A stretch of DNA of 62,463 nucleotides, counting the filler, from Craspedostauros australis (taxonomy: Eukaryota): the NCBI GenBank assembly GCA_030167865.1. It is 10 parts of 10 records of this genome, joined end to end, with 100 filler letters (N's around TTAATTAATTAA, not from the genome) between each part and the next. Parts side by side here need not be neighbours in the genome. Positions count along the whole stretch, not along the records: positions 31,577 to 43,644 come from JALAGF010006620.1; 9 more parts are not named here. One strand, written 5' to 3'. Positions 21,887 to 49,570 of this stretch are shown here, piece after piece (positions within the stretch are counted from its first letter, which is position 1; every line of letters begins with the position of its first letter). The notes below the pieces were generated by a model. The model made no database searches, was not told the origin of the DNA, and was given only the letters and a program-made list of their open reading frames with translations. Both the position numbers and the translations under genes were made by a program.

Positions 21887-22540
21887 GTTTGACTGTTACT
21901 TACTGGCGAATGGTGGGGGAGCGTTTGAGACAGTTATGCGAATGCTATCTGGATGCGTTTTATGAAACGAAGAGTGTTGCTGCATTCCGAGGCTTCCTCC
22001 TGTGTTCGTTTTCATCATGTGGTGATCAACAAGCTTGTCATGCACAGCATCCGCACTATCCATCACCGTGTTGCAGCGTGATCATCCCATGTGGAGCTAC
22101 TCCCCTCCACCAGCGTCCAACGCATGCTACAAGCCTAGTCGATCCCGCGTTCGAGGAGGAATGATTATATATTATAAAAGGAATAGATATATTATAACAA
22201 TATGTACATGTCTAAGTGTACGTTACATAAATATACACCTTTGAAGATGAGTGTATATACAATACTAGGCTAGACCCAACGCACAACGTACGGTTGGGGA
22301 CGGCTCCTATGAGTCGAAATTTTGGGATACACATGGTTCTCTTTGCCTGCGCCACACTCGCTCGGAGCATGCACGTGTCACTATCACTTTGACGCTTTGG
22401 CTCTTCACCATGTGCTTCGATCCGTTGAGACAATGATGTGAGGTTCGCGTGCTTGTCACCATGAGCCTCTAAGTGGAATGTGTTTGGATAGACAACGACA
22501 CGACATGTATGTGCGACACGCATGAGACAGGATCAGCGTA

Positions 22541-23057
22541 GACGAGCAAACTTGGGGAATCGACGAGCAAACGAGGGGGAGTCGACGAGCAAACGAGGCG
22601 CGTCCGACGAGCAAACGAGGGGAATCGACGAGCAAACGAGGGGAATCGACGAGCAAACGAGGGGAATCGACGAGCAAACTTGGGGAATCGACGAGCAAAG
22701 GACACTAAATCAGCCCAAAATACCGCGGATTTGGCACTGCGACATGGGGGTGATAGTTGATCAAGCTAATGCATCGGGTATAGTTGTCTTTTTACCTGCA
22801 GTATGATGCAGAAATGAAAAATTGATAAGACAGATGAGACATGCAGCTTGTGTTGTTCAGCTTAAGTGGTTGATGTTGATTGAAAGCTGCGTTCGGAAAC
22901 ACAATTGACATGAGAGTTTTGCATCGCAACCTTGTCATCTACGATACTGCGACATGTTGCTGTAAATGATTTTGTCGTATGGGACGTGTCGAAAGTACAG
23001 AAATAGTCCACACTTGAGGGGAATCGACGAGCAAACTTGGGGAATCGACGAGCAAAC
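22541..23057 (+). repeat. 21-bp tandem repeats GACGAGCAAAC(G/T)(A/T)GGGGAATC in two blocks (22541-22698, ~23016-23057)
   Basis: About 7.5 units plus 2 units before the gap. Confidence 0.9.
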
Positions 23058-23429
23058 NNNNNNNNNNNNNNNNNNNNNNNNNNNNNNNNNNNNNNNNNNN
23101 NTTAATTAATTAANNNNNNNNNNNNNNNNNNNNNNNNNNNNNNNNNNNNNNNNNNNNGAGAGGTCCAAGGATAAGCTCAAGATGATTTCATTCCTCCAAA
23201 TTGATCAGTGCAGTGCAGATATAGGCCGGTTTGACCCACAGCGGCGTTCGACGATCGGTGTCATCGTGTGTACGAGGAACATGAAGGTTTCAACCCCTTA
23301 CGCAAGTAAAGAAAGCGTACAAACCCACGGAATATGCCGATGGAAAGGCCTTGGATGGGTCCCAATCGGTTGCATGCCTTCGGACTGGTCATTCCCATGC
23401 ATGAGTAGCAAAATCGCGAAACACCGAGG

Positions 23430-26400
23430 AGCTGAATATTCACCGTTGCATGCATGACCAAATTGGACCGGAGTGACCCCTAAATATACATTGGCGACCT
23501 ATAACCACTCAGAGCGCACCCATCAGGGACCACACCATGGCCCACCAGCGTTGGCTTGCTTGAGGATCGATGATTTGTGTGCACTTCTGCCCAGAACACG
23601 ATATTCAGTGTTGCTGAATATTCAGCTTCATGTGTGTGACGAAATTTGACCGGAGGCACGCTTAAATATGCAATCACGGCCTATAACCACTTGGAACGCA
23701 CCCATGGGGGACCATACCATGGCCCACCATCGTTGGTTTGCTCGCGAATTGATCATTCCTATGTACATCTGGCCAGAACACGATATTCAGTGGCGCTGAA
23801 TATTCACTGTCATATGAATCACGAAATTGGACGGAGTGACCCCCTAAATATGCAATCACGGCCTATAACCACTCGGAACGCACCCATTGGGGACCATACC
23901 ATGGCCCACCATTGTTGGTTTGCTCGCGCATTGATCATTTGTATGCACTTATGGCCAGAACACGATATTCAGTGGCGCTGAATATTCACCATCATATGAA
24001 TCACCAAATTGGACGGAGAGACCTCTAAGTATGCATTGGCGACCAATAACCACTCGGAACGCACCCATTGGGGACCATACCATGGCCCACCATTGTTGGT
24101 TTGCTCGCGCATTGATCATTCCTATGCACTTATGGCCAGAACACGATATTCAGTGGTGCTGAATATTCACTGTCATATGAATCACCAAATTGGACGGAGT
24201 GACCTCTAAATATACGATTATGGCCTATAACCACTTGGAACGCACCCATTGGGGACCGTACCATGGCCCACCATCGTTGGTTTGCTCGTGCATTGATCAT
24301 TCCTATGTACATCTAGCCAGAACACGATATTCAGTGGCGCTGAATATTCACCATCATATGAATCACCAAATTGGACGGAGTGACCTCTAAATATGCAATG
24401 ACGGCCTATAACCACTCGGAACGCACCCATTGGGGACCATACCATCGCTCACCATCGTTGGTTTGCTCGCGCATTGATCATTCCTATGCACTTCTGGCCA
24501 GAACACGATATTCAGTGGCGCTGAATATTCACTGTCATATGAATCACCAAATTGGACCGGAGGACCCCTAAATATGCATTGGCGACCTATAACCACTCGG
24601 AACGCACCCATTGGGGACCATACCATCGTCCCCCATCGTTGGTTTGCTCGTGCATTGATCATTCCTATGTACATCTAGCCAGAACACGATATTCAGTGGC
24701 GCTGAATATTCACTGTCATATGAATCACCAAATTGNNNNNNNNNNNNNNNNNNNNNNNNNNNNNNNNNNNNNNNNNNNNNNNNNNATATGCATTGGCGAC
24801 CTATAACCACTCGGAACGCACCCATTGGGGACCATACCATCGTCCCCCATCGTTGGTTTGCTCGTGCATCGATCATTCCTATGTACATCTAGCCAGAACA
24901 CGATATTCAGTGGCGCTGAATATTCACTGTCATATGAATCACCAAATTGGACGGAGTGACCCCCTAAATATGCAATGACGGCCTATAACCACTCGGAACG
25001 CACCCATTGGGGACCATACCATGGCCCACCATTGTTGGTTTGCTCGCGCATTGATCATTCCTATGTACATCTAGCCAGAACACGATATTCAGTGGCGCTG
25101 AATATTCACTGTCATATGAATCACCAAATTGGACCGGAGGACCCCTAAATATGCAATGACGGCCTATAACCACTCGGAACGCACCTATCGGGGACCATAC
25201 CATGGCCCACCATCGTTGGTTTGCTCGCGCATTGATCATTCCTATGTACATCTGGCCAGAACACGATATTCAGTGGCGCTGAATATTCACTGTCATATGA
25301 ATCACGAAATTGGACGGAGTGACCTCTAAATATGCAATCACGGCCTATAACCACTCGGAACGCACCCATGGGGGACCATACCATGGCCCACCATCGTTGG
25401 TTTGCTCGCGCATTGATCATTCCTATGTACATCTAGCCAGAACACGATATTCAGTGGCGCTGAATATTCACTGTCATATGAATCACCAAATTGGACGGAG
25501 AGACCCCTAAATATGCATTGGCGACCAATAACCACTCGGAACGCACCCATTGGGGATCATACCATGGCCCACCATCGTTGGTTTGCTCGCGCATTGATCA
25601 TTCCTATGCACTTATGGCCAGAACACGATATACAGTGGTGCTGAATATTCACTGTCATATGAATCACCAAGTTTGACCGCAGAACCTCTAAATATGCAAT
25701 GACGGCCTATAACCACTCGGAACGCACCTATCGGGGACCATACCATGGCCCACCATTGTTGGTTTGCTCGCGCATTGATCATTTGTATGCACTTCTGGCC
25801 AGAACACGATATTCAGTGGCGCTGAATATTCACTGTCANNNNNNNNNNNNNNNNNNNNNNNNNNNNNNNNNNNNNNNNNNNNNNNNNNNNNNNNNNNNNN
25901 NNNNNNNNNNNNNNNNNNNNNNNNNNNNNNNNNNNNNNNNNNNNNNNNNNNNNNNNNNNNNNNNNNNNNNNNNNNNNNNNNNNNNNNNNNNNNNNNNNNN
26001 NNNNNNNNNNNNNNNNNNNNNNNNNNNNNNNNNNNNNNNNNNNNNNNNNNNNNNNNNNNNNNNNNNNNNNNTAAATATGTAATGACGGTCTATAACCACT
26101 CGGAACGCACCCATTGGGGACCATACCATGGCCCACCATCGTTGGTTTGCTCGCGGATCGATCATTCCTATGTACATCTAGCCAGAACACGATATTCAGT
26201 GGCGCTGAATATTCACCATCATATGAATCACCAAATTTGACCGGAGGGACCTCTAAATATGCAATGACGGCCTATAACCACTCGGAACGCACCCATTGGG
26301 GACCATACCATCGTCCCCCATCGTTGGTTTGCTCGCGCATTGATCATTCCTATGTACATCTGGCCAGAACACGATATTCAGTGGCGCTGAATATTCACTG

Positions 26401-26633
26401 TCATATGAATCACCAAATTGGACGGAGTGACCCCCTAAATATGCAATGACGGCCTATAACCACTCGGAACGCACCCATTGGGGACCACACCATGGCCCAC
26501 CATCGTTGGTTTGCTCGCGGATCGATCATTCCTATGTACATCTGGCCAGAACACGATATACAGTGGTGCTGAATATTCACTGTCATATGAATCACGAAAT
26601 TTGACCGGAGGATCCTTTAAATATGCAATGACG
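23430..26633 (+). repeat. 181-182-bp tandem satellite, ~17 units including gaps
   Basis: CGATATTCAG recurs at 23781, 23963, 24144, 24325, 24506, 24687 etc.; the first unit is more diverged. Confidence 0.97.
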
Positions 26634-26893
26634 ACCACCCCCACTGTATCCCAGATGGATTTGTTTACAGCGAGCACCTGGGACACCCGGCAAGTGCATC
26701 AAATACTTCAGTTTACGACTAGTACGACTTGATAGTGGTTTTTGTCATTTGTTGTGATTCTTTGTTGTTTGTGAGATGTTGACAAAGCAAATGTCGCAGC
26801 GACGTCTTCGTTTGATTCATTGATATTACTACTTTATCAGTCGGTGTTACTCGGACAAATTTAGTCATTGCTTCCGTTTGGTTGAAGTGTCAT

Positions 26894-27126
26894 CGAGTCC
26901 CGTCGAACCTGCTTCCTTTTGCATTTAATGCATTTGCAGTGCATTTAATGCACTTGGGGTTCAAAAAATGCATTTGAAGTGCATTAAATGCAAATGGAGT
27001 GCATTAAATGCATTTGTAGTGCATTAAATGCAATTGGGGTGCATTAAATGCATTTGGAGTCAAAAAAATGCACTTGAAGTGCATTAAATGCACTTCATCG
27101 GTTTTGCTGTGAACAATTCGTGAATG
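26894..27126 (+). repeat. Cassette copy 3 with 20-bp GCATTWAATGC repeats in both orientations
   Basis: CGAGTCCCGT start and TCGTGAATG end; GCATTTAATGC x2, then its reverse complement GCATTAAATGC repeated. Confidence 0.7.
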
Positions 27127-27532
27127 GATCCTCCTGGCATCAACTCNNNNNNNNNNNNNNNNNNNNNNNNNNNNNNNNNNNNNNNNNNNNTTAATTAATT
27201 AANNNNNNNNNNNNNNNNNNNNNNNNNNNNNNNNNNNNNNNNNNNNGGTGGAATACATCCTCTTCTGTCAATGCCGCAATGTGTCGCCCCCCGGTTGAGC
27301 CCCTGTGGGGGTTGCGTTTCGAATTCAGATGCTTTCGCAGGGTCTTGCCTGACGCTGCCTCGCGGGATGCAGCAGCGGAGTCCGCGTATGCAAACTCCAA
27401 CTTCAGCTCCTACAGATTTTGTAGCACGATTCCATAGGATTGAAGTAGATCAGGTTTGAATTGTGTGGACATCGATCTTATGGTGTTAGCGGTTGCATCA
27501 CCTGATGGTAGGAGGAGGTGGGTTCGAGAGGA

Positions 27533-30500
27533 TCAGAGGAGAAAAGCAAGAACAGTTTGAGTGAGCACCGCGAATCGACTTTTGAAATTCATGGCAGGAG
27601 CTCCATCCATTTCATGCTTGAACGTACCAATTACAATCATTGCACCTGTCACCCCAAAGACGAAGGCATGACAAAGCAGTTGAATCATCTCTGATTTCTT
27701 TTCGAACAATGCCCTCCATTTGTTGTCTTGGAGATCCACGAACACATGACTCTTTCCCTCCGTCCCATGCTCCCAATCGGCCTTCCGCTGGTGCCGTCTT
27801 TCAAGATCTTCTGTGTCTGTCGTTGCCCGAGTCTTGATCTCCACAACAAAGGCTTCATCGTCGCTGTCGTCCTCTGGATCACCGACGATTGCAAGGAAGT
27901 CGACGGAGGCGCAGGCGTACGGTGCATCAGTGTTTCGCACCACCCCCACTTGGTACGTTGCCTTCACTTGCCTTCCCTCGCCGCCCACTCCAACACAGTG
28001 GAGGGCCTGCTTCATGAGGGGAGCTTCGTTTTTGTGGCCTAGCTTGGCGAGCTTTCCGGCCTTGCCCCGAACCGACTTCATGAACCACGATTGTAACATG
28101 AGAGTTGTGAGGTCGTGGTCAAGCTTGTGCATCCACTCTGAAGTGGTGCTTCCCGCCTGGAAACTGGATGGATGGTCAGGCTCCTGCTCGATCTCCTTCA
28201 TCACCAGGGCAACCAATCTCTCCACAACCTTCTCTCGTGGCATTTTTGTTACATTGGTTTTGGGGAGACGAGCCTTGAGGTCTTTCTTGAGGGAGGCGTC
28301 GCTGATGGCCACGAATCGCCGTCGAACCTTGGCGTCATCAGCGAGGATGGTGCGGAGCATTTTGCATCGTGTGGCTCTGGTTCGCTGGGCCTTGCTGCGG
28401 TAAAACATAGCCATGAGTTCGATGAACTCTTTGTCAGGGAAGGCATCCTCTTCAGGGGCATCATCGCGGAGAGAGGAGAGAAGTGCAATTTCAACATGAC
28501 GGGAATCGAAGGTGGGAGATGGGAGTTGGGAGTATAACTCAAGTGCGCGCAATCTCGCTTTTTCTGCTTGCAACGCATTGTGGTACTTCGCCTTCCGACC
28601 AAGCACGTCATATCCCAAGTAGCGGCCAATGCACTCCCATGCAGTTTGATTGAATATGGTGGCATTGTCGGTGTTGCACCACTCTCCACTTTCAAGCACC
28701 TTCTGTATCATGCTGTAGGTGGAGGTGCTCGTGAACGCAAAGCGGCAGTGGACGAACCACAGATGGTCACCCTGGCCACAGGTGAGTCCATCCACAGGCA
28801 GATCCCACACCATATCTGCCCAACGCTGTTTNNNNNNNNNNNNNNNNNNNNNNNNNNNNNNNNNNNNNNNNNNNNNNNNNNNNNNNNNNNNNNNNNNNNN
28901 NNNNNACGAGCGTGTTGGATTGACAGTGCATGTTTGGAAGAAGTGTGGGTAGTGTGGGGATCTTCGATTGTTCCCATGCTTGTCCTCCACCATGTCTTGG
29001 TACTTTTGTTGGTCACTGGCGTTGGTGAGGGTGAGGTCCCACTCGAAGCCACTCGATCTTGTGGAGAGTGCAAGTTCAGTTTGTTCGTTGAGGCGGTATC
29101 CATAGCATGTCAATTGTTGTTTGCCAATGCTGTTGGTGACAGCGCTATGCACCATCCTTGGCCCCTTCCTCCCAATATTCATCTGGAGTGTACCCTTGCC
29201 AATGGATGGGCCNAAGGTGAATGGTAGGTATCCGGCTCGCATGTGTGTACCCTCCAGATTGGCACCCCTGGTAGTGAGGAAGGCGGTAGTGCTGTGGCAG
29301 TTGTATCCTCAATCTGTCATGAGGGTTAGATTTCGAAAAGAACCATCTGGTTCTTTTAGTTGGGTGAACAACCAATAGGTGTCATCATCGAACCCATCTC
29401 GGCAAGCAGCCAACCCCACAACAAGTCCAGAAGCAGACTGGACAAGAGTGTTCAGGGTTAATCTGAAGGAANNNNNNNNNNNNNNNNNNNNNNNNNNNNN
29501 NNNNNNNNNNNNNNNNNNNNNNAATGGAGATGCCACCCCTCTGCAACAAAACACACAATGCTGTTCGTCACTTACCCATTACGATTTGCATGAGTATGTC
29601 TCATGCCAAGCAGATAGCTGCTCTCCGCACGGCTGCTGCAATGGACCTTGTCATCATCCAATGTGACAATCCGATTCGGGCAACGATGCCGAAGACAAAG
29701 AATCTCAAGCGTCAAGTTGAAAGAACTTTCCAATTCGGTCCAAACAAAGCGATGACCATTCCAAGAGACAGGGTGTCCATTGCGTCGAATACGATCCCAG
29801 AGATTGACGTAATGCTGTCTGGTGGGAAAGCTGGGAAGCGTGGCAGCGTTGCCGCCATCGTAGAGCCGACAAACGGTGCAGCTTTCCACCATCTGTGATG
29901 TGATGGCATAGAGGAACTCCACGTACTCAGCATATGAGAAACCCAGCCCACTTGGGCCAAATGCACGGATGAAAATGGGAGATGTGGGGCCCAGCACATC
30001 GTGGATCAAGTCATGGGGTGTTGGCACGTATGGTGGAGACCCAGGAGGACTCTTGGGGAAGTGCTGCAAGACAGCTGTTCGCAGTGAACGAATCTCTTCC
30101 TTTGCATGGAGAAGAGCAAGCTTGTGTGCTTCTCCAACAGTCACTTTTGTTGCATGGTCGTAGGCCGAGAGCACCTTCCACTCCACAGAGATCTCCCGAC
30201 TCCCTTTCTTGGGAGGGAGGACGATGCGATGGCTGTAGCCAGGAATCGAGCACGGTTGGACTCCAAAATCGCCAACAGGATCTGGAAGCACCATTGTAGG
30301 CACCGCACCCTCATCATCACTGTTGACACAGATGCCATCTCCTTCTTCATGGGTGTGTTTGCCTGCATCACCCATTCCATCATCCAAAACTTGTCCAAAG
30401 GGATGAAGCTGCTGGGATGGAGAGANNNNNNNNNNNNNNNNNNNNNNNNNNNNNNNNNNNNNNNNNNNNNNNNNNAATGGACCTTGTCATCATCCAATGT

Positions 30501-31355
30501 GACAATCCGATTCGGGCAACGATGCCGAAGACAAAGAATCTCAAGCGTCAAGTTGAAAGCACTTTCCAATTCGGTCCAAACAAAGCGATGACCATTCCGA
30601 GAGACAGGGTTTCCATTGCGTCGAATACGATCCCAGAGATTGACGTAGTGCTGTCTGGCAGGAAAGCTGGGAAGCGTGGTAGTGTTGCCGCCATCGTAGA
30701 GCCGACGAACGGTGCAGCCTTCCACCATCTGTGATGTGATGGCATAGAGGAACTCCATGTACTCAGNATATGAGAAACCCAGCCCNCTTGGGCCAAATGC
30801 ACGGATGAAAATGGGAGATGTGGGGCCCAGCACATCGTGGATCAAGTCATGGGGTGTTGGCACGTATGGTGGAGACCCAGGAGGACTCTTGGGGAAGCGT
30901 TGCAAGACGGCTGTTCGCAGTGAACGAATCTCTTCCTTTGCATGGAGGAGAGCGAGCTTGTGGGCTTCTCCAACAGTCACTTTTGTTGCATGCTCATAGG
31001 CCGAGAGCACCTTCCACTCCACAGAGATCTCCCTACTCCCCTTCTTCGGAGGGAGGACGATGCGATGGCTGTAGCCAGGAAGCGAGCACGGTTGGACTCC
31101 AAAATCGCTAACAGGATCTGGAGGCACCACTGTAGGCACCGCACCCTCGCCATCACTGTTGACACAGATGCCATCTCCTTCTTCTTCATGGGTGTGTTTG
31201 CCTGCATCACCCATTCCATCATCCAAAACTTGTCCAAAGGGATGAAGCTGCTCGGATGGAGAGACGTTGCCATGGCCGATTGTTGCAACTGGAGTGGAAG
31301 CTGTGGGCAAGTCATCATTGGCATTGGGAGCATTGGGCGGACGAGAAGATGCCAT
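27533..31355 (-). pseudogene. piggyBac-like DDD transposase fused to a YqaJ/lambda-exonuclease (PD-(D/E)xK) domain with a SAP-like insert; inactivated, N-terminal part duplicated
   Basis: VTLDDDK (~29650, ~30490); LMTD*GY (DRGY with stop, ~29310); GANLEGTHMR; TCGQGDHLW...FAFTST; GHKNE; ASVD; VVEIKTR; QLLCH. Confidence 0.7.
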
Positions 31356-32734
31356 GATGAAGGTGATGTATCGAAGAAGGCAAGCTGGAAGAAGAAGGCA
31401 GTATGGGGGATGCTGCGAATGACAAGCAAGGAGGTGCGAGGTTGGTGATGGAATGAAATGAACCACAGCAGGCAAGNNNNNNNNNNNNNNNNNNNNNNNN
31501 NNNNNNNNNNNNNNNNNNNNTTAATTAATTAANNNNNNNNNNNNNNNNNNNNNNNNNNNNNNNNNNNNNNNNNNNNGCAAAAGATCGAAAATTGTCTCGA
31601 AATTTGCGTCCTGACGCATCTTGGGTCCATTATCGCGACGAAAAATCACCGTGGATATCAGCATCCATAGAATTGGATCCCTTCCTGACGGATCAAAGAC
31701 TTCAAACTTCATGTCCTTACTCTTTGGAGTGTTCTTGGAGTGATGTGGCTGATCGGATCTCTCAAAATGGCCTGCCGAATGCATAGATATGCAGAAGACT
31801 GTACAGTGCAATGCGCACCACTCAGTATCACGCGATTCACAGATTTGGATACCAGCATCTCTTCCAGATGGATTTAGATACCCACAAGCTAATAATATAC
31901 CCATTGGAATGCTCTCCATGCTCTTATCTTGTTAGAATGTAATATTTTTGTCCTTTCCATTGAACGTGTCGTCAGAATACGATCCACAGCGCAAGGAATT
32001 GGAGCAAACAGATGGATGATGTACACATCTACAACTAAGGTAGCCATTTATTCCTTTTACTAGATGCATTAAATTTTAGTGGACTATTTGATTGCATTCT
32101 ATGGCGGTTATGCTAAACATGTATGATGTGGCTTATACTTTTCGTGTGTAGTGCAGGTAGTCTATATTTATACCTAAACTTGCGAGTCGATGTGAGATGT
32201 TGTGTCCACGGGACGTCGTATGGACATTTGGACGTTTTGGGTCGCTAAGAAACACAAAACAGGCTGGTTGATGCAAATCGGCACTTCAAAAGGGCTGGTT
32301 AATGAATTTCCTCATGTGAAATGCGATAGGCCTCTATTGTGCCACGCAGTTGTTTCTGGTTGTTCTACTACTGGCTTCGCGTTAGCTGACGCTCGTGTTC
32401 GTTGTGTAACGCCATTTCAACGGTTTCACATGTATCCTGGTTTGCCGAACGACCCAAAGAAAACAGAAGAAACCAGAAGAAAACGAGTCACGATCAGCAA
32501 GTCGGGACACGATCAGCAACAAAGACACAGCAAATTGTCCGACCCACGAACAACACCACGATCAAAAGACCAAGGAGGACACTGCAACAACAATAACGAC
32601 GGCAACTTCGACATCCAGTGGTTGCATACGACTACTATTATACTCTACTAAACAACAACACAGAGACATTGGGAGTACTATACACACCGGATCCAATCTG
32701 CTCCTCCTCTTTCCAACACAAATCACAGCAACAG

Positions 32735-32766
<32 letters not shown>

Positions 32767-33180
32767 CACGCGCGACCGCGCATAAACAATCATCCTTCCC
32801 ACCCCACGATTCTCCTACCCTCCGCCATTTGGCCAACTCGTCCACTCGGTCAGCCCGCTTTCGATCAAACGATCAGATCTCGTGCCGTGCCGTGCTGTCT
32901 GTCCTCTTCTTCTTCTCCTTCTCCTGAGCGAAGAGTCGAAACCCAAGCGCGCGGAGACTGGAAATAACGACGTTCCACACCCTCTCTCAGCAGTGCCTCC
33001 GACACAACTGTTACACCCACGGATCCAGCCATCAAGCAGGGAGACAGCCTTCCCATCGACACCAACAAACAGATTCAATAGCCAACCACAAGCAACCAAC
33101 CACGAGCAACCAACCACGAGCAACCAACCACGAGCAACCAACAAAGAACGAACGTCCAGCACCCAGAAGCCAACACGACG

Positions 33181-36100
33181 ATGATCCGAACCGCAATGTC
33201 AAAAGCGGCAGCCAAAACCGCATCCATGCCTGTCTTCGCCCACACCTTGATCAGGACAACTCGCATGCCCGACTCACGCACGTTCTCCGCCGTGGCCAAC
33301 AAACTTCTCCCTCCCATGGCGACAGGGACGGCGACAGCGATTAATGGCCCCATGCTGGGACCTGCCCCCTCAGCTCCACCTTTGCTATCCCCGCAGCGAC
33401 CATCCACCACTTCCAGATTCATCTCTTCGGTGCCTTTCGCACCAGCACCGGCCTCATCCTTGCCATTGGTGCCAGCTTCGCCAACCCAATGCCAACTGCA
33501 ACGATGGTGGTCTGCTTCCTTTCTCCGTGCGGCATCCACCAACGGCAATGGCCGATCTCTGCCAGAGCTGCCAACAAATGTCAGTGACTACGAGGACCTC
33601 TTTAACACTTCTGCATTCTGGAATGCCAGTTTGAAAAACGAAGATGTCGAGAAGATGCTGAACAAGCATTTTAGCATGGCCGCTCCCCCGACTGACTTCT
33701 GGAACACCGTGGTCGGGGACAGGCAAAGCTTCGTCGACACCGCTAAAGAAGAACACAACCGTGTTGGCAATTTGGAAGGCATGGCAGACGGTTTCCTGCG
33801 CAAGAGTGCCACCGACCCCATGAGTCTATGGATCAAGTCCCCAGACGACAACAACGACATGAACAGAAAGAACGTCTTCAAGTGGGTTCGATCATCCTTG
33901 AAGAAGAAACCTGAGAACGTTCGCGAGGCAATTCTCAATGACTTGGAAGAGATTTCCAAAGACAAGGTCAACGATGTTGAACAGGTAAAAGAACTGCATT
34001 GCAACAACACCGTGAAAACCTTCTATGTTGGTCATGCCAACTTTCGGCACAAGGGAGAGGCCCAAAAACGACCACCGAAGGTCTTTCTCAACAAGCCAGA
34101 AGCAGACCAGGACGACAAGGTGTGGGTTTATTACACCAACAGCGGCAGTGGCAAGACTGTCGAACTTGCTGCCAGTGGATACCTGCGAGGAGGAGTGATG
34201 AGCATCATGAACAAGGTTTCCAAGGACATCCCCACTCGGGACAACACAGAATCTCGAAAGACTGAATGTCGCAAGGCACTCATCTCCTGCCTGGACGACA
34301 TTGTGAAAACAAACAAGGCTACATTCGAAACACTCATCAAATCAATGAATGCATGGGAAAAAACTACTGAACCGGTTCGAATCGTGTTTTGCATCGATGA
34401 GGCATCTTCATGCCCAAACCTCCTACGCGCAATCATCAGCGAATACGAAGCTCTCAGCGGAGAGTTGGGAAATTACATCGCAAGTGGCTTCGGCGGCGCT
34501 ATTGACACCACAAAGAAAAATGCGATTCAAGTTCTTTTCTCCGTTGCAGGCACGGGGGCGTATCAAGGCTCGTCTGGATCTCTCGGTGATAATTATCAAT
34601 ATCTCACACCCACTGGCAACGTAGTGGGGGAAGACCTGTACAAAACACTCACATCCGAATACGAGGACAACGATCACAACAAGATTGGGACGCTTCCGGG
34701 ATTCAAGGACTTGCAAGATGCCCCGTTTCTCTGGATCATCATGCAGTATAACGCAAGGATGGCTTCCATCCTCATTGACCAAATGTACAACTCGCAACTC
34801 AGGTACAACCATCCACACGAAGAAACCAGACTCATGTCGTTGGTGTTCGAGAAGTACGTTCGCAGCAACGGAATGCACTTCCTTTGGCATTCCCAGGGAG
34901 ATTCTGACCAGTCGAAGTTGAACACAACAAGCAACCGACTCCATGTGGCATCAATGGGGCTTGCCACCTATCTTTATCCACAACCTGTCACGATTCCAGC
35001 TGGCGAGGATGAGATTAGCGAGCTCGCGCTGGGACTCGACTACGGCATCAGGTTCCAGTCGTTTTCTGCCCAAGAAGGAAAGGCCAAAGCTGAAACTAGG
35101 TCTGGATCTGGATCTACTGACGCTGATGTTCCGTGTGACAGCAACGTCACCGGCAACAAAGAGAAAAGGCGTCGAACGCTTATGGACCTTCTTGTTCGAG
35201 AGTGCGGATTGGTGACGCAAGAACAGTTTTCCAAGAAGACAGAGGACAACGTACTGGAACAGCCGTTCATCGTCAACGAAGCGATGCAACTGCTCTGCGT
35301 CTGGCTCATGCAGGGTGGCCAGAGATTAAAGAGCACTGAATCGCTGTTGGGGACGACTCCATTTGCATTCGAGGTGCTGTCGACCCAGCTTGTGAGCTGC
35401 GCCATCTCTGCAGCCATGACTGTCCAGGTTGAACACCGTCCGAAGGTCCACGAGATCTTGACTAAGTCCCTCGGAATGTTTCGGAACAAGTGCATGCTGG
35501 GAAAAGAAGAAAAGCCGTTTTTGGACCCGTATGTCGAAACTAGTTGGGCAGCGCTGGAGAATGTGATCCCTGTTTCAATCAAGTGCGACCTTGCAATGGA
35601 CGGTATGTATCACCACAAATCTCCGATGTTGCTGAAGGCCAAGCCAGAATCTAAAGGCGATGACAAGTTGGATACAAGCAAAACGGGTGGGAAGACGCCA
35701 GCAACAAGAACGAGCACCAAACCGAAGAACTCTGAGGCCTGGGCCAACGTGGCGACGATGGCAATTAGGAAGGGCGACACCTTGGATCTTGACTCTCTTA
35801 AAGACCTCGAAGAAAAGAAGGACTTCGATGCCGCCGTGGCGAGCAGCCAACAGGAAGAGACCCTCACCATGGACCGAGACATGTTGATAGGTCTCACACA
35901 GATGAGACAGAACAAGGACTGTGACGGTACACCACAGTACTTCACTCCATCTCTGTGCAGTGTGGCGGAAGGCAACAGTAACCTGGCCGATGGAACCGTC
36001 TCCTTCATCGGTGCCAAGTGGAACGAACGCGAAGAGAAATTGGAGGACCACGCAATGTACACCATCTGTGTCCAAGCAAAGGATATCTTCGGGAAATCCT

Positions 36101-36423
36101 TGAAAATGGAGAAGGTCCACAACAACCTGAACAGAGTGAAACATGATCTCAATAACATTCCGTTCGGAGAGAATCGCATGTACTGTGTTGCATCTCGGGC
36201 TCATCTGGTGACGAGAGCAAGGGTAAATCTCGACAACGGTTTCACTGATGGCAAACGGAACGACGACATGCCGAAACTCGAAACGAAAATATCTCCTTTT
36301 GTCTCCTATCCCACCGACGGAACTAAGATTCTCTCTGGTGTAATGGAGGCAATTGACGAACGTCGCAACAGGCAGGAGAAGATCGTGAAGCATGGCGTGA
36401 TGCTGAAATACGAGGAAGAGTAG
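33181..36423 (+). CDS. P-loop NTPase + PD-(D/E)xK nuclease protein (Crinkler/RHS-like architecture) with long mitochondrial-type presequence
   Basis: Intact 1080-aa ORF; Walker A-like NSGSGKT (~34138-34158); Walker B IVFCIDEA (~34381-34404); C-terminal LADG...ICVQAK; first ~125 aa rich in R/S/A/T/P with almost no acidic residues. Confidence 0.7.
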   Translation: MIRTAMSKAAAKTASMPVFAHTLIRTTRMPDSRTFSAVANKLLPPMATGTATAINGPMLGPAPSAPPLLSPQRPSTTSRFISSVPFAPAPASSLPLVPASPTQCQLQRWWSASFLRAASTNGNGRSLPELPTNVSDYEDLFNTSAFWNASLKNEDVEKMLNKHFSMAAPPTDFWNTVVGDRQSFVDTAKEEHNRVGNLEGMADGFLRKSATDPMSLWIKSPDDNNDMNRKNVFKWVRSSLKKKPENVREAILNDLEEISKDKVNDVEQVKELHCNNTVKTFYVGHANFRHKGEAQKRPPKVFLNKPEADQDDKVWVYYTNSGSGKTVELAASGYLRGGVMSIMNKVSKDIPTRDNTESRKTECRKALISCLDDIVKTNKATFETLIKSMNAWEKTTEPVRIVFCIDEASSCPNLLRAIISEYEALSGELGNYIASGFGGAIDTTKKNAIQVLFSVAGTGAYQGSSGSLGDNYQYLTPTGNVVGEDLYKTLTSEYEDNDHNKIGTLPGFKDLQDAPFLWIIMQYNARMASILIDQMYNSQLRYNHPHEETRLMSLVFEKYVRSNGMHFLWHSQGDSDQSKLNTTSNRLHVASMGLATYLYPQPVTIPAGEDEISELALGLDYGIRFQSFSAQEGKAKAETRSGSGSTDADVPCDSNVTGNKEKRRRTLMDLLVRECGLVTQEQFSKKTEDNVLEQPFIVNEAMQLLCVWLMQGGQRLKSTESLLGTTPFAFEVLSTQLVSCAISAAMTVQVEHRPKVHEILTKSLGMFRNKCMLGKEEKPFLDPYVETSWAALENVIPVSIKCDLAMDGMYHHKSPMLLKAKPESKGDDKLDTSKTGGKTPATRTSTKPKNSEAWANVATMAIRKGDTLDLDSLKDLEEKKDFDAAVASSQQEETLTMDRDMLIGLTQMRQNKDCDGTPQYFTPSLCSVAEGNSNLADGTVSFIGAKWNEREEKLEDHAMYTICVQAKDIFGKSLKMEKVHNNLNRVKHDLNNIPFGENRMYCVASRAHLVTRARVNLDNGFTDGKRNDDMPKLETKISPFVSYPTDGTKILSGVMEAIDERRNRQEKIVKHGVMLKYEEE

Positions 36424-36673
36424 AAAGTCAAGCGTAGCAGCAACAGACACATCCCTTACCTCATACGCACAACAAAATGGGACATCAAACACTGTTCTTT
36501 CCATGGTCGAGGGTTCTCATGATCGACCCACGGATGTAATTTGTAGAGTGCGTACTTGTCGAAGCAGTTCACGCTACCTCTACTCAATACTATACACATA
36601 TGACCCGTGTGAGCGAAAAGCGGTGCGGTCCAGGCAGAATGCATTTTGGCCCAAGCTTGTGCGGTCCCTCATA

Positions 36674-38236
36674 TTCCTCTGTTCCGAAATGATTTCCACT
36701 TATCTATTTTATCATCGGTTCGACACCGTGTCGTAGTGGGGAACTTTGGGAGCTGCGGGAGACCGATTTCCCAGTCGCCTCCCACCCTGGTCTGACGCAT
36801 CCTTGTTGACCTTCGGTACCCATCGCAGTATCATCAATAGTTGATGTACCACTATATGTAGATACCAAGTAGACTGTACCACAAAAACAGACGACAGCAT
36901 CTCCACATTTAGACTGCTTGTCCAGCACCATGCCTCCACGTTTCTGTCAGTGAAACACTGTGCAAGAGTTGGTTCGTGTGCTTTCACTTGTTCGAGTGTT
37001 TGGAAGGTTAATTCTTATCGTGACATCACTCTCTGTTCCGTAAGTCCAAATCATCCTCCAGTTAACAGGCGAAATAGAACACTGTGCAACATGCGAAGAA
37101 CGACGCAATGACAAAATCACGAAACATCGATTTTCTATTTGACATTTTATTTGTGTTCACAAGCACGCAATCGATATTTGTTTGAAAGGAAACATGAGAA
37201 CTCCCCTCGTGTTGTGGACATCGGTGTCTTCGTGACCTGTCGCAGACATCATTGCGTTCCCACCAAATAAGATCTTTGACATAACGCCACGACCCAACCA
37301 GCCAATCATGATGGTCGGTTCATGCAATGCCATAGTTATTGTTAAATGATGACGCCATCGAGCTTCCGAAGGGTTTGTCCAACACGTCACGTTGGTCGTG
37401 TTGTGAATTTTCCTTTTCCATTTTTACGTTTCGAAGCACAATTTTTTGTGTTGTCGTTGTGGTTGCGCTTTGAAAACGCGATTTCCGACTGATTGCAACA
37501 CTCATCCATTTCCCGAATCGTGTAATTATCGTGCTATTTTCATATTTTTTTGTTTCTACTGACAACATGCATGGTGTTGTCCAATTGTTGTCTGAATTTG
37601 TCAGTATCGCGAGTGTTGTGTGTATGATTTCGTGCTGATGATGGATTCGTGACTACGGGGTTGTGATGTTGTTTGTTGTGTCAGCTGTTGCTGCTGTCAA
37701 TGACGTCTGTCATCGTACATGTGTACAGATGCAACACCTCACACGCTTGTGTTAGCTAGCGGAAACAATTCAGTATGTCGTACAAAGAAGACTGGGATCA
37801 CCGCACTCCACTGGCGGCATTCACTGGCGGCATTCACTGGCAGCATTCACTGGCGAACGTAGAATGATGGAATGCATCCCATGAGTAGGTCCGTATGTCG
37901 AAAGAACAGAATCACAGGCATCTGCTTGTTGCACAGATCCAAAGCATTAGGGTTGGATGACACATCAGCAATGAGGATGAGATATCTGCCCACCCAATCG
38001 CAGACCGCAAATGTGTGTATATCGATATGCCTGGAGTTCCTTGGCGGTTGGTTGGCATTTGCCATCATTCTGGCGCCTTGGTTGTCCTTGTAGATAAGTA
38101 TGGCATGCTGTTGGCACATGCTGATTTTGTCCAGGATGGACCAAAACCAGAGCACCATCTTGCCATTGTTGCTGGTGACATTGAACTTGGCTTTAGAGGT
38201 AATGAGAGAAACAGTGGGTTGGACGCAGGTTTTCCA
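36674..38236 (+). mobile_element. Dispersed repeat with Stowaway/mariner-like end (TA|TTCCTCTGTTCCGAAAT), copy 1
   Basis: Inverted match to 43745-45708; similarity stops sharply at a TA dinucleotide in both copies. Confidence 0.65.
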
Positions 38237-41133: not shown

Positions 41134-43598
41134 TCATTCGAATGTTCTCGATGTGTCAAGGTACGACTTCTCATGTTCTCGTTGCAAGTCGGCCTTGATG
41201 TTCTTGGTGAATCCGTCGCTTGTGTTCTGCTCGGATTTGACAAAAATGATTGGGATGGTCTTGTTGGTTACCATGTTCCTCACGTAGTGATGGCGCACGT
41301 CGATGTGCCGCGATTGTTGGGATGTTGATGGGTTCTTGGCGATGAAGATCGCTCTGACGTTGTCCGCACGGACCTTGATCGGTGTCTTCATTGGGACACC
41401 CACACTCTCGAGTAGCTGCACGACGAAGAAGATTTCCTTTGCCGCTTCTGAGAGGGCAACGTATTCTGCTTCGGATGAGCTGAGTGTGACGGCCTTCTGT
41501 GCCTTGGATCGCCAAAGGATTGGTACCTTGCACAGGTATAGGATGAACCCTCCTACGCTGATTCTTGTGTTCTTGTCCCCTGCATATTCGCTATCGCAGA
41601 AGAGCTCCATGTCCCAGCCGTCGTCGTCTGGGCATACTGGATGGATCTTCAATCCATGGTGCTGCGTATCGATCACGTACTTGATGATCCGATACATCTC
41701 CTTCATTGCGGCCTTGGTGGGCCCAATCAATACCTTGGAGAGTTCCCTCACAGGGTTCGCGATATCTGGTCGCGAGTGCTTGATGAGAAAGAGTAGCATA
41801 CCGACGCCTTGGCCGTATTTGGCATGTTCTTCCGGTCCGACCTTCTGTAGTCCGTTATCTTCGGATGGTCGTACGATGATTTGACCCGGGGTTCCCCGTG
41901 TCCCGTAGCATTGCATCTTCTCAACCTTGGTTCCAAATTCTTTGATGAGATGTTGGATGAGATGTGGTTGACGCAATGTTGCTCTAGTCTTGTCATGGTT
42001 CAGTTCGATGTTGCAGCTGAGGTAGTCTCCGAGTCCGCGCTCGATTGTCACCTTGAATTTGCTGCCTTGGATGTCCTTCAGGAAGGTCTCCAGTGCCTTG
42101 GAGTCTCCACAGCAGAAGCAATCGTCCACGTAGATGGCCACGATCATGCTTCCTTCGTTCGTCTTCCTGTAGAACAGGCACGGGTCCGCTGCGCTCTGTT
42201 CGAAGTTGATATTCTTGGGGGTCGATACCAACATCTTGAACCATTGCCTGGCGCTCTGAACAAGTCCGTAGATTGGCTTGTGTAGGGTCAGGGCTTCGTC
42301 TGGTTGATGATCCATTCCGTTGGGACAGTTCATGTAGATCTCCTCGTTGAGGTCTCCATGTAGGAATGCCGTTACGACATCGACGAGTGCGCAGTCCATC
42401 TTCTTGATCAGCATGATCACCATCATGACCCGATAGGTCACGTCATGAATCACTGGTGAGTAATGCTCTTGGAAGTCCACTCCTGCGATTTGTGAGTAAC
42501 CACATGCAACGAGTCGTGCTCGATGTGTGCTGTCGTGCTTCACCTTGAAGACCCATTTGCATTTGCAGCATCTGCGGCCGCATGGGATGGCGTCTCGTTT
42601 GATCTTGCTGTACACCTTGCGTGTATCCATTGAGTCGAACTCCTTTTTGATGGCTGCTCGATATCCCTTTCGATGGATGGGATCCGGGTGATTGAAAGCT
42701 CCATCGAATGTCGTTGGTTCGATGTGTTTCTCTGGTTCCTTGTTCTCGTCCTGCATCGACAGTCCAATGTCGATTGCCGGTGTCTCAGTGATGATTGCGT
42801 TCATTCCGTATAGTCCAGTTGTATTGTAGTGGGTGATCTCGATCTCTTCTTCTTCGTCTACGACTTCCTCGTCATCTGTAGTTTCTTTGTTGGATTCGTC
42901 GGTTATCTTGTCACTGAGTTCGTCACTATCTTCGTTGAATGACGACTCACTCGCATAACCTTCCTCCTTTTGGCCTCGTTCGTTGAAGTCTGCAAGCTCA
43001 CGCAGAGCTCTAGGAATACTCTTCCCTGTAGTCGGTTTGGGATTAGCTTCTCCCTTCCTGCCTCGTGCTTCGTGACGTCGGATTCTCTCCTTTCTAGCTA
43101 TGTCACGCTTCCTTGGTTTGCTTGGTGGAGGTCTCGATGGTGTATCATGTGTAGACCTCGCTGGTGTGTTCGGAGGAGTGACGTCTGTATCATCGTCGGC
43201 TTTGTTGCTGGATGGTGGGATCTCGTCATCCTCATGATTGGATTCGCTCCGATCTTCGTCGTCGTTATGGATTAGTTGAGTTACTGCTTCATCGTCCTCA
43301 TCATCCTCATTGTTGCTGTCTGATAGGATGTGATACTTGTTCGTGTCAGCAAAAGATACTCTCTTTGCTTCTGATTGTTGACGTATTGCCGTTCTTGGCA
43401 TTGCTCCCTTCCGTCCGATGGTTGTGAAGCCGTCTGCGTCCGTTGTTCCTGCTTTGCTGGATATGTTTGGTGCTGGTGCCCAGCCACAGAACTGTCCGTG
43501 TGATTGGTTGAGCCATTTGATGTTGCAGAAACAGACCAGTGACTTGGTTGATGGTCTGTACATGTTGTACACTCCTGATGCATGTTGGTGTGCATATC
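41134..43598 (-). CDS. Copia Pol fragment (IN C-terminus, RT, RNase H), related to but distinct from the 6043 family
   Basis: HRARLVACGYSQIAGVDF, IYVDD, FCDSEY, SSSEAEY and RHIDVRHH motifs; cut at 43598 by an LTR. Confidence 0.92.
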
Positions 43599-46189: not shown

Positions 46190-46654
46190 AAGTCCAAAAT
46201 TGTCTCAGGAGACCAAGCGGATTCGAGGGGTGCCAAAATTGGTCTCCTCAGACCAAAATCAAGCAACGCGACGTTTTATCGCGATGGCATTTTCTTCGAC
46301 CACCTCGACTAAAACTATTTGTTCGCGCTCACTTTTTTCCCCCCTCATATCGTTTTTTCCGATTTCTCACAATATCCTGGCATGCCCTCCTATTTACTAT
46401 GGCTCAATGCTTCTCCTGGATGCATTGAGCCACTTGCATCTCATCACAGTTCTTCGTATACATATGTTCGTTGCATGCTTATCCATGTCCTCCACGCTCT
46501 TCACAGGACATGATCGTTCCGCAGCGTTCTTCCTCTTGCATCACAATGATTTGTNNNNNNNNNNNNNNNNNNNNNNNNNNNNNNNNNNNNNNNNNNNNTT
46601 AATTAATTAANNNNNNNNNNNNNNNNNNNNNNNNNNNNNNNNNNNNNNNNNNNN

Positions 46655-49570
46655 CTTTGTTCCGATGATGTTCTCCAATTGCGTGGCTGTGCGAGCTGCT
46701 TCTGCCCACAGCTTACTTCGAGAGCTCTTCGGTAGATGTGTCTGATTCAGCATAGCTCTCACCTTTCCGTATAGTACAGCGAATTTTCGCTCTACGCGTC
46801 CATTTTGTTGGGGAGTGGCCGCGGCGGTGTACTCGAAAGTCGGTCCGAATCCAGCGTTAAGTAGTTGCTTCTCCGTGGAGTAATTTTCTCCCGCGTTGTC
46901 ACATCTCACATTTTTCACGCTCACTTCCTGATTCGCNNNNNNNNNNNNNNNNNNNNNNNNNNNNNNNNNNNNNNNNNNNNNNNNNNNNNNNNNNNNNNNN
47001 NNNNNNNNNNNNNNNNNNNNNNNNTCGATAACCAGAAGCCAGTATTTGCCTCGGCCGAAACTGTATGTCTGAACACTCGATGTGTCCATGAACAGTCGCT
47101 CTCCGACTTTCTTTGCTCTTGGCTGTAGAGTCTTCGTCAATCCTCTTTGTCGCGATTTGCCGATCGCGCAATCCACACAAGCGTTCAGTTTCCCTGTGAC
47201 ATTCCATCCGTATTGTCCCGCAGTGCGAGAGATGGTGTAAGTGTCAACATGGCCTAACATTTTATGAATTTTGTTGATGTCGATCGGTTTCTTCGTCGNN
47301 NNNNNNNNNNNNNNNNNNNNNNNNNNNNNNNNNNNNNNNNNNNNNNNNCAGTGCGAGAGATGGTGTAAGTGTCAACATGGCCTAACATTTTATGAATTTT
47401 GTTGATGTCGATCGGTTTCTTCGTCGACACCACGACGTTGGCTTGATCGTCATGGGCAGGAGCGGCCACCATGTTCACGCCGCTCACAAATCCACTGTGC
47501 GTCGCCATGATGCGATCGAAGCGAATGCGTTGTCCCTTCTTCTCCAAGGACATGATCACACCTCGGTTGCTAATATCGAAACCGTTTTCGAGAGCCTTGT
47601 TGATGCTCAAGAGGTTGACCCATAGCTNAGGCACGTACTTCACCGACTTGAGGAGGATGATTGCGGTATCGCCATTCTTCTGCATGACCTTCATCCGCTT
47701 GTCCCCCACCTTGGTTGCCTTGAGGTATCGACCGCTGCCTACCTTGATGGAGTGATTCGCTGTGCGCACGTTGATCATACCCTCGTCGTTGTTCGTGAGG
47801 TGACAGGAGGCGCCGGAATCTCCCAACCAGGTGTTGGCCTCGTGGCGGTCGGGTGCGATGGTCGACTTGCGCGTATNNNNNNNNNNNNNNNNNNNNNNNN
47901 NNNNNNNNNNNNNNNNNNNNNNNNNNTTCACCGACTTGAGGAGGATGATTGCGGTATCGCCATTCTTCTGCATGACCTTCATCCGCTTGTCCCCCACCTT
48001 GGTTGCCTTGAGGTATCGACCGCTGCCTACCTTGATGGAGTGATTCGCTGTGCGCACGTTGATCATACCCTCGTCGTTGTTCGTGAGGTGACAGGAGGCG
48101 CCGGAATCTCCCAACCAGGTGTNGGCCTCGTGGCNGTCGGGTGCGATGGTCGACTTGCGCGTATCGACGTCGTCCAAGTCGCCGATCACCATTGCCATTT
48201 CGTGGCCGTTGGCATCGCTGTACAGTGGTAACTCGCAGTGGGTGCGATAATCACGGACGCCGTTGATGCTCGGATGATGCATCCACATCAGCTGCTCCGA
48301 TGCGATGCTGCTCATTGCTCCGATCAGCGCCTGTTGGATTGGCAGAAGACGAACACTCTCCAGTATTCCATTCATCCTGTATGCATTCACGCACACGTCG
48401 AGTGCACCTCGCACTCCGATTTGGTGCATCAAGTAATACAGGGAGCGTGGTTCCACCCCCGTCAATCTGAGGGTTGCAATGTTATGCACTGCCTCGATGC
48501 AGATGAGGGAGAGTTCGGACCGGACGTCGTTTGGTGAAAGGACGTTGCTCAGCGAGCACCGGGCGGTCACGAACAACATTCCGCTCGTCTCATCTAGCAC
48601 TTCTCTGCGCACCATCCTTTCGCCTTCGTTTCTAGGCACGGCACCTCTTGGCTCGTTGGCGAGCTGGATGAAGAAGGGTATGTTCGGGCAGTCCACGCAC
48701 CATGCGTAGAGAGGCCCTCGCTTGAGGCACAACGGACACCATCCGTTGTTCATGTCGCGACGCGATGATTGCTCGATCATGTCGTCGAGTGCGCTTGGAC
48801 GGNNNNNNNNNNNNNNNNNNNNNNNNNNNNNNNNNNNNNNNNNNNNNNNNNNNNNNNNNNNNNNNNNNNNNNNNNNNNNNNNNNNNNNNNNNNNNNNNNN
48901 NNNNNNNNNNNNNNNNNNNNNNNNNNNNNNNNNNNNNNNNNNNNNNNNTTTGATCATCTCCTCGTCGTTGATAGGGGGCCCGTAGTAACCGTACTCTCGT
49001 GGAGAGTGCTTGGCCATATCTTCGGAAGTCCACGCTCTCTCCGCGTTGGGTGTTTCGCTTTCGAAGCTGGCGGTTCCGTCGACGTCGATTGTGACGAACG
49101 CCATGTCGTCCATCATCACATCATCATCGTGTAAAAACACACGGTCCTGTGTGGTCACATTTCTGTCTTGGTTCGCGAATTCGGTGATTTTGTTGAGTTT
49201 TTCGCTGATCACACTTTCTTCTTCGGTCGCGTCTTCGTTGATGAACACACACATCATATCGTCTGATGCGGTGAGTGCGACGTCGTCGACTCCATCCATC
49301 CCGTCGGTAGCGACGTTGGCGGAGTCCGCCTCCTTCATGGCGGCCCTGAGCTTGAAGCACTGCACAATCTTGTGCCCCTTCTTGCCGCAGTAGTTGCATT
49401 CCCCGTTGAATTTGGGTTTGCCTCCGCCGTTGCCTTGGCCCTTCGACTTGTTCTTGCCGTTGCCCCTCTTGGCTGCGGAGCGACAGTCCGCCTTCTTATG
49501 GCCGTAGGCGCCACAGTTGCGACAGTTGCCCTTGAAGCTCCCAATGGCTGCGAGTGCCATCTCCTCCTTG
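46655..49570 (-). mobile_element. Second copy of the 6043 copia family (Gag knuckles, extra domain, PR, IN)
   Basis: ORFs 47254..49560 and 46607..47260 are near-identical in protein to the 6043 ORF. Confidence 0.95.

Follow-up and report, generated by a model that had tools for sequence, protein, structure and literature searches.

A CR-like NTPase–nuclease family expanded in the diatom Craspedostauros australis and a candidate mitochondrial leader on one of its members

A 62,463-nucleotide stretch of DNA from the diatom Craspedostauros australis (GCA_030167865.1; ten parts joined by filler, hereafter ‘the window’) holds, at positions 33181–36423 of the plus strand, an intact single-exon open reading frame (ORF) of 1080 amino acids (aa), in which a leader, a helical header-like domain, an AAA+/STAND-like NTPase, a helical, putatively winged-helix region and a PD-(D/E)xK nuclease follow one another. 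Judged from its sequence and from structure models, this protein—P0001—is a predicted catalytically complete NTPase–nuclease of the Crinkler/RHS-like (CR) kind, and its family is strongly expanded in the diatom and not previously described in the literature that we found. Our preferred reading, held tentatively and at a little under an even chance, is that this enzyme, catalytically complete, belongs to a CR-type conflict family which has expanded in diatoms and whose leaders re-address its members, P0001 most likely to mitochondria. Of greater interest is the broader picture, in which leaders of plastid type, nuclear type and presequence-like type occur side by side in one family.

Architecture and active sites of P0001

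The P0001 frame runs through 1080 plus-strand codons without an internal stop. Contigs of one public run, which is RNA only by guess, cover 32776–36772 without a joint (the lack of cover outside about 32700–36800 in that run proves nothing), and this jointless cover fits an unspliced transcript. The original prediction of an intact, intronless ORF is thereby borne out. No ATG occurs on the plus strand between 32433 and 33180; the candidate starts are six methionines, all in the first 58 codons, and the next methionine past the leader, M159, sits within a conserved helical domain. At least 70 leader residues are therefore translated, and a start beyond the whole leader, once considered as an alternative, is not borne out.

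The catalytic motifs named in the original prediction could all be located, with TNSGSGKT (Walker A) at aa 319, IDEA (Walker B) at aa 405 and QAK at aa 965, the aspartate of its D...QAK pattern being D937. Dozens of homologues share them, which puts them far outside what chance would give. E731, a third nuclease residue that had gone unnamed, is kept in 97% of 59 aligned rows. A structure model built on a 97-sequence alignment (mean predicted local distance difference test (pLDDT) 80.8; predicted template modelling score 0.81) is disordered over aa 1–126 and all-helical over aa 128–262, continues into an alpha/beta core and ends in a second alpha/beta domain.

The all-helical, header-like domain (aa 128–262; 33562–33966, plus strand) carries an F..FW motif found in 43 of 59 5′-complete own-genome copies and is not ubiquitin-like in the model. 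The LxLFLAK/ubiquitin-like header of oomycete CRN effectors is absent from the P0001 sequence, whose N-terminus is disordered, then all-helical. Since this domain lies between leader and NTPase, the earlier idea that the leader replaces the header did not hold. The P-loop NTPase follows at 33967–34866 (plus strand, as are all its motifs) and contains Walker A (34135–34158), Walker B (34393–34404), AGTG (34546–34557) and NARMAS (34750–34767); GxGKT and hhhhDE are conserved in the family, and both Walker motifs are intact in P0001. Foldseek placed ORC5, CED-4 and NRC3 on top for this core (E 2–4e-4), and VIA-align returned the archaeal ATPases 2qen (Z 11.8, root-mean-square deviation (rmsd) 5.6, 280 residues aligned) and 2fna (Z 10.4) together with NLRs; because of these matches we regard the core as a STAND/ORC-like AAA+ NTPase. 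Past the ATPase lid, a helical region (34867–35340, plus strand) with a basic KRRR patch at aa 662 aligns with the C-terminal third of 2qen and 2fna, the model as a whole aligning over aa 270–708 with residues 7–350 of 2qen. We take that part of 2qen and 2fna to be a winged helix, which makes the region a candidate helix–turn–helix (HTH) segment between NTPase and nuclease.

The PD-(D/E)xK nuclease domain (35341–36420, plus strand), delimited by the model, structural matches and conserved residues, bears a large insert and a site that the family alignment assigns to E731 (35371), D937 (35989) and QAK 965–967 (36073–36081). D937 is invariant in 15 diverse family members; the full set of E731, D937 and K967 is present in 23 of 28 complete rows from the own genome (32 minus four duplicate or truncated ones) and in 24 of 26 from the library. 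When aa 658–1080 were modelled separately (pLDDT 82.5), most of the 50 matches listed were, as judged by title, restriction-fold nucleases; the named ones, BspD6I among them, include AF1548 (Z 5.6), PaqCI (5.4), MspJI (5.2) and FokI (5.0). The best of them (rmsd 3.4, 106 residues aligned) aligns from the E731-bearing helix onward. Model, restriction-fold matches and the E731…D937…QxK967 pattern thus agree with the fold originally expected of the C-terminus, with low Z.

Protein language-model neighbours of P0001 were eukaryotic clusters only, one of which (score 0.93) carries PF20147 Crinkler on 45% of its members; a second lead (0.84) carries PF07999 on 14%. A comparison of the family profile with the sequences of solved structures gave one chance match (E 0.2), and a viral fold search gave merely generic AAA+/STAND matches. 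In the available text of PMC5289972, the commonest CR core is described as header, NTPase, HTH and restriction endonuclease (REase), the REase being thought toxic and the NTPase its regulator. The domain set predicted for P0001 corresponds to this core: the original call of a CR-type NTPase joined to a restriction-fold nuclease, backed by the structural matches and the Crinkler-bearing cluster, was right, and its mitochondrial idea is plausible.

Leaders, family and a captured element

The first 125 residues of P0001 contain nine R, three K, one D and no E, alongside 16 S, 13 T and 20 A. These counts agree with the leader as first described (about 125 residues, rich in R/S/A/T, one acidic residue), to which 17 P can be added. 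When the bases of the leader were shuffled, 2.5% of the shuffles encoded no more than one acidic residue and 3.8% contained no stop, which makes the chance component modest. By charge and hydrophobic moment, an N-terminal extension (aa 1–45; 33181–33315, plus strand) resembles a mitochondrial presequence; it includes R33-T-F-S, an R-x-F-S that we assume to be a cleavage-like motif. The remainder (aa 46–127; 33316–33561, plus strand) appears from DNA alignment and profile to be the remnant of a plastid-type bipartite leader with its transit-like second half kept. Residues 70–122 match the profile of paralogue leaders at 28.5 bits, as against 8.0 for the best of 1000 shuffles, and the DNA alignment reaches back to M46, G60-P61 standing at the G|F of the paralogues (aa 46–69 are weakly aligned). 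On these alignments, the P0001 leader derives from a plastid-type bipartite leader that lost its +1 Phe and gained a 45-residue extension. No plastid signal was seen in P0001 itself from any of the six starts, with no hydrophobic core before a Phe, best cleavage scores of 4.5–6.1 and a site hydropathy of 0.46 (scored without SignalP).

Leaders elsewhere in the family were compared in a census of 60 5′-complete rows from part of the family, which includes the fragment L150b in error; the filter removed L003, and for three rows a later methionine was chosen manually as the start. In 19 of the 60, a plastid-type [A/G]|F-x-x-P leads into a stretch nearly devoid of acidic residues; a strict rule (missed by the similar L035 and L041) finds a basic cluster at the start of five, and most remaining copies open directly with the acidic header. 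Diatom plastid import is described, in the accessible part of PMC4329603, as relying on a +1 Phe after the signal peptide and an acid-poor transit peptide (the ASAFAP motif). Scored with the matrix of that source (ASAFind, used without SignalP), the clear bipartite leaders—L007, L021, L025 and the library proteins P0003, P0004 and P0017—reached 7.1–7.9 and have hydrophobic cores like those of the light-harvesting (FCP) proteins, for which controls gave 7.7–9.05. Eight plastid-type rows found later were scored by motif and hydropathy only, and the L067 row was ignored, the wrong stretch having been chosen. The FCP family itself has 59 matches in this 65.9-Mb genome, several with AAA|FAP leaders.

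In a FastTree phylogeny, plastid-type leaders occur in several clades, with P0003/P0004 and P0017 apart from them (deep nodes are weak), and this scatter indicates repeated gain or loss. The P0001 leader was found intact in P0001 only when paralogues were surveyed, as had been suggested, for its conservation. Leader variety is seen at the sequence level, from which actual targeting is predicted. Within one young clade, the start of L032, L037 and L039 lies ~17 codons further upstream than that of L019, L033, L035, L036, L038 and L041, and this upstream start swaps the basic N-terminus for another, a case of leader switching by point mutation. The resulting ‘MTPP..HSARTF’ starts were considered as mitochondrial and rejected, their net charge being −1 to 0.

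A full-length P0001 query found at least 68 matches in its own genome (43 of 202 candidates scored), and an NTPase query found 106 from 107 candidates, one with an internal stop. By hand count, these 106 fall at about 90 places, some of them probably alleles or assembly duplicates. The representative protein library held 84 relatives at E ≤0.001, P0001 included; P0005, P0006, P0012 and P0035 are not independent evidence because they are near-copies of own-genome loci (96–100% identical). Where homologues carry a species label, it is that of a diatom (Bacillariaceae sp., Nitzschia sp.). Word-indexed protein searches returned P0001 itself alone, or four proteins. The most distant of these, P0106, an unnamed protein of 816 aa, has the NTPase and nuclease motifs in common (profile probability 96%). 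It may link the family with CR-like families of other protists, although no connection to a named CR family emerged from it. Narrow pattern scans retained none of 23 viral-contig candidates, none of 16 from prokaryote genomes and one of 17 from metagenomes. A search of mostly open literature found no paper describing the family or organelle-addressed CR proteins; the supplements of Zhang et al. 2016 may list diatom members.

Between recent paralogues, the ratio of nonsynonymous to synonymous substitution rates (dN/dS) is 0.4–1.0, and the whole P0001 coding sequence stayed stop-free in just 0.2% of neutral simulations run over half the synonymous distance to its sister. As read from these sequences, the family is fast-evolving yet maintained open, and we infer from the fast change a resemblance to conflict genes.

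The 5′ untranslated region and leader DNA of P0001 (33015–33530, plus strand) recur at about 77% identity, interrupted by frameshifts and stop codons, within a TA-flanked 6.66-kb element that has terminal inverted repeats. Its roughly 20 copies are 89–95% alike (left end at 18 sites, right end at 22), one of them lying at L059:3917 onward (G000:C154, about 22416–29075). No NTPase or nuclease remnant and no recognisable transposase was found in it; the TA flank suggests what we take to be a non-autonomous Tc1/mariner-type element. Among six intact genes, the transit-like part of the leader aligns without frame breaks, whereas the transposon copies have frameshifts and one to four stops. A lone 72-bp left end of the element lies at 36602–36673 (plus strand), 178 bases past the P0001 stop, and the gene is not part of the element; a right end lies about 10 bases past the stop of L016 (position 1280 of that locus). 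Two element ends are thus found less than 200 bases past family stop codons, both facing away from the genes, a placement apparently above chance on a rough, uncomputed estimate of ~40 ends in 66 Mb. One might speculate that the element is a source of small RNAs against the gene family.

Proposed function and competing explanations

On the preferred reading, the STAND/ORC-like AAA+ domain would bind nucleotide, probably switch or oligomerise upon sensing DNA, and license the C-terminal PD-(D/E)xK endonuclease to cut DNA, with gating and substrate both proposed by analogy with the CR literature. Gain, loss and remodelling of leaders would re-address the family among DNA-bearing compartments. 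In the P0001 lineage, a plastid-type leader would have lost its signal peptide and +1 Phe before gaining a presequence-like extension, and because of this loss and gain P0001 is most likely imported into mitochondria; we put such import at roughly an even chance. There, its most plausible task would be tightly controlled action on foreign or selfish DNA—plasmids, mobile introns or a competing organelle genome—and not housekeeping. Whichever compartment the enzyme reaches, the likeliest role is to defend it against foreign or rival DNA or to be in conflict with such DNA.

From M1, the leader has a net charge of +5 in 40 residues, a hydrophobic moment of 0.58 and a 10-residue hydropathy of 1.27. 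Six presumed mitochondrial enzymes, hand-picked from the same genome with their location assumed from family and their scores hand-made, span +3 to +7, 0.57–0.84 and 0.29–0.80; six FCPs taken in the same way span −1 to +3, up to 0.49 and 2.07–2.62. The mitochondrial presequence of the original prediction hence stands in part: charge and moment are in the native range and unlike those of FCP signal peptides, but hydropathy is above it. Leader length is no objection, as two mitochondrial controls have leaders of ~90 residues. A number of points nevertheless weigh against the preferred reading, among them that hydropathy, which exceeds all six mitochondrial controls, and the hand-made character of the control set. 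Were translation to begin at M29, M46 or M58, the positive N-terminus would be gone (net +1 to +2), and no other paralogue has an intact counterpart of the aa 1–45 extension. The leader alone stays open in 16–29% of neutral simulations; its ratio of nonsynonymous to synonymous differences (pN/pS) from the transposon copies is 0.83–1.1, indicating no amino-acid-level constraint, and its acid poverty is within reach of base shuffling (the 2.5% given above). The AMG|F leaders of L002, L005, L012, L020, L026, L031 and L069 score 5.5–6.2 for cleavage, overlap the mitochondrial controls (3.6–6.5) and are ambiguous. Basic patches in P0001 (KKK241, KRRR662) would permit nuclear import. As to the domains, Pfam assigned no family to P0001 or its parts and nothing consistent across 40 homologues; nuclease-fold matches stop at Z 5.6, with a best Foldseek E of only 0.05 (MspJI), although a low Z is expected from a ~110-residue core split by an insert.

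The same list includes the distribution of active sites. Among 36 complete, N-free own-genome copies, the nuclease triad is intact in one of nine with a plastid-type address versus 20 of 27 others (Fisher p 0.0015; the rows are related, and about four separate losses were counted). This suggests that an active nuclease is poorly tolerated in an organelle and favours the view of the P0001 leader as a relic. The link is not absolute, for an intact triad also occurs in P0003, P0004 and P0017, whose plastid leaders are clear. Of the two sister copies, P0001 retains the triad and has lost the Phe, and L002 retains the Phe (G|F) and has Asp at K967. Six of the nine plastid-type copies are NTPase-only with altered Walker motifs. 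The pattern would suit a guard or decoy function of dead copies in the plastid. NTPase-only paralogues with altered Walker motifs are L113, L114, L115, L116, L120–L124, L143 and L152, six with plastid-type leaders; they are candidates for decoys or antidotes.

If the leader of P0001 is a decayed relic and the extension opened by the upstream ATG incidental, the enzyme would act in the cytosol or nucleus on invading or mobile DNA, as leaderless and basic-leader copies would, which we consider rather less likely than not, though worth keeping in view. The homology of the leader's second half to plastid-type leaders, a pN/pS near 1 against the transposon copies, the uniqueness of the extension, the basic patches, the prevalence of active nucleases in copies lacking a plastid-type address and the sister that kept G|F and lost the catalytic Lys all speak for it. 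It is less easily squared with a first AUG that opens a positive, amphipathic, nearly acid-free stretch with R-x-F-S, in the native-presequence range on charge and moment, or with a leader frame that is intact where the transposon copies are broken. Selfish poison–antidote genes present another, improbable, account, in which active copies kill gametes or offspring lacking them, dead or NTPase-only copies serve as antidotes or decoys, and addresses vary since killing via any genome works. Medea1, as far as the text at hand of PMC11342252 describes it, has the CR NTPase+REase architecture and kills embryos, and Spok is described in the available portion of PMC12693581 as killing by DNA degradation; about 90 places, high dN/dS and a mixture of complete, altered and NTPase-only copies would suit such genes. 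No fixed partner gene stands beside P0001 within the window, however, and the covering run is not known as a sexual stage.

The intronless, many-copied genes might also be transposases of an autonomous mobile element with the family as its copies. Prokaryotic NTPase+REase pairs are linked with transposons in what is available of PMC5289972, an inverted-repeat element has taken up the P0001 5′ end, and just 3′ of family genes lie two ends of that element. Yet the shared flanks of 11 young-clade copies end raggedly, at differing places and without any terminal motif in common (of the 5′ alignment, a part was viewed), for which reason P0001 is not an evident transposon and an autonomous one was rejected; older copies could have lost their ends. 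The inverted-repeat ends moreover point away from the family genes, no trace of an NTPase or nuclease is present in the 6.66-kb element, and nuclear transposition needs no long acid-free leader, all of which makes this account very unlikely. The least likely of all is the uniparental idea of the original prediction, a domesticated factor that, once mating has taken place, would destroy the mitochondrial DNA of one parent. Nucleases imported into the plastids of Chlamydomonas and into the mitochondria of C. elegans (PMC11756805, as far as its accessible text goes) would be precedents, and a presequence-like leader with an intact active site would suit the role. An inheritance factor, by contrast, should be a stable orthologue, and P0001 is a single recent, fast-evolving paralogue with an extension lacking an intact counterpart; plastids, furthermore, are biparental in the pennate diatoms of 10.64898/2026.06.14.731673, according to the part available. 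A literature search found no text on the mode of mitochondrial inheritance, and the accessible text of PMC9033121 contains nothing on organelle inheritance. The boldest extension of the preferred reading, and a long shot, is a CR nuclease arsenal in all three genetic compartments of the diatom, in which one recycled leader would switch paralogues between nucleus, plastid and mitochondrion. Active copies would cleave organelle DNA that competes or invades (plasmids, for instance, or the organelle genome of the other parent), dead or NTPase-only plastid copies would serve as guards or antidotes, and P0001 would be a plastid-to-mitochondrion retargeting in progress.

Genomic surroundings and known systems

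The P0001 region is rich in transposons. Pfam identified ORFs of Copia-type long terminal repeat retrotransposons at 6043–11931 (plus strand), 41134–43563 (minus) and 46607–49560 (minus). A 498-aa ORF at 19094–20590 (plus strand) has no significant Pfam match and does not match the captured 6.66-kb element; its motifs resemble, as we read them, those of an IS630/Tc1/mariner transposase. Three ORFs at 27533–31355 (minus strand) likewise lack a significant Pfam match: we take one to carry a YqaJ-like nuclease motif and the other two, near-duplicates, a transposase-like acidic motif, possibly forming a two-gene DNA transposon. A short repeat at 32166–32314 is shared with the region upstream of L026 and matched by dozens of contigs. 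Elsewhere in the window are a 1117-aa ORF with an AAA_16 match and long helical repeats (49748–53101, plus strand), a STAND-type ATPase of another kind; an ankyrin-repeat protein (55924–56880, minus strand); and a fatty acyl-AMP ligase-like AMP-binding enzyme (60025–62403, minus strand).

Among known ATPases, the STAND-like 2qen and 2fna, ORC/Cdc6 and the NB-ARC/NACHT switches are the best structural matches to aa 270–708 of P0001, at an identity of only 9–13% and an rmsd of 5.6–6.4, and no close prokaryotic or viral relative came up in the narrow pattern scans. The diatom bipartite plastid presequence shares with the 19 of 60 family leaders a hydrophobic stretch, a small residue at −1, Phe at +1, Pro at +3/+4 and an acid-free transit part, whereas P0001 lacks such a presequence and the hydrophobic cores are weak in several paralogues.

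CR proteins, in the texts available of PMC5289972, PMC11342252 and PMC11064341, are like the predicted P0001 architecture in the order of header, P-loop NTPase, helical/HTH region and restriction-fold nuclease. Both groups are lineage-specifically expanded in eukaryotes, and the CR class includes unrelated helical headers and free-living hosts, as far as those descriptions extend. P0001 differs in having no ubiquitin-like header, no Pfam Crinkler or RHSP match and a large insert inside its nuclease domain. A further difference is that many family copies carry plastid-type bipartite leaders—and P0001 a presequence-like one—ahead of the header, whereas the portion at hand of PMC5289972 states that signal peptides had been excluded for the headers of CR proteins, a single hydrophobic case apart.

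If a free-living alga does direct such nucleases to its own plastid and mitochondrion, eukaryotic conflict systems would extend to organelle genomes, CR proteins so far having been described as host-directed or nuclear, and the family would supply candidates for how diatoms sort biparental organelles or police organelle plasmids and introns. P0001, with its active site intact and its plastid motif gone, and L002, which retains the motif and lacks the catalytic Lys, form a natural contrasting pair. Compared by their partial descriptions, Tribolium Medea1 (CR-NTPase8 + CR-REase7) and Podospora Spok (nuclease+kinase) join, as P0001 does, a nuclease and a regulatory NTP-binding domain in a single gene in a setting of genetic conflict. 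The REase7 signature, a His three residues past the active-site Glu in the text available of PMC11342252, is unlike the QxK site of P0001, and AACRNL, from what is accessible of PMC12957317, offers a looser poison–antidote precedent.

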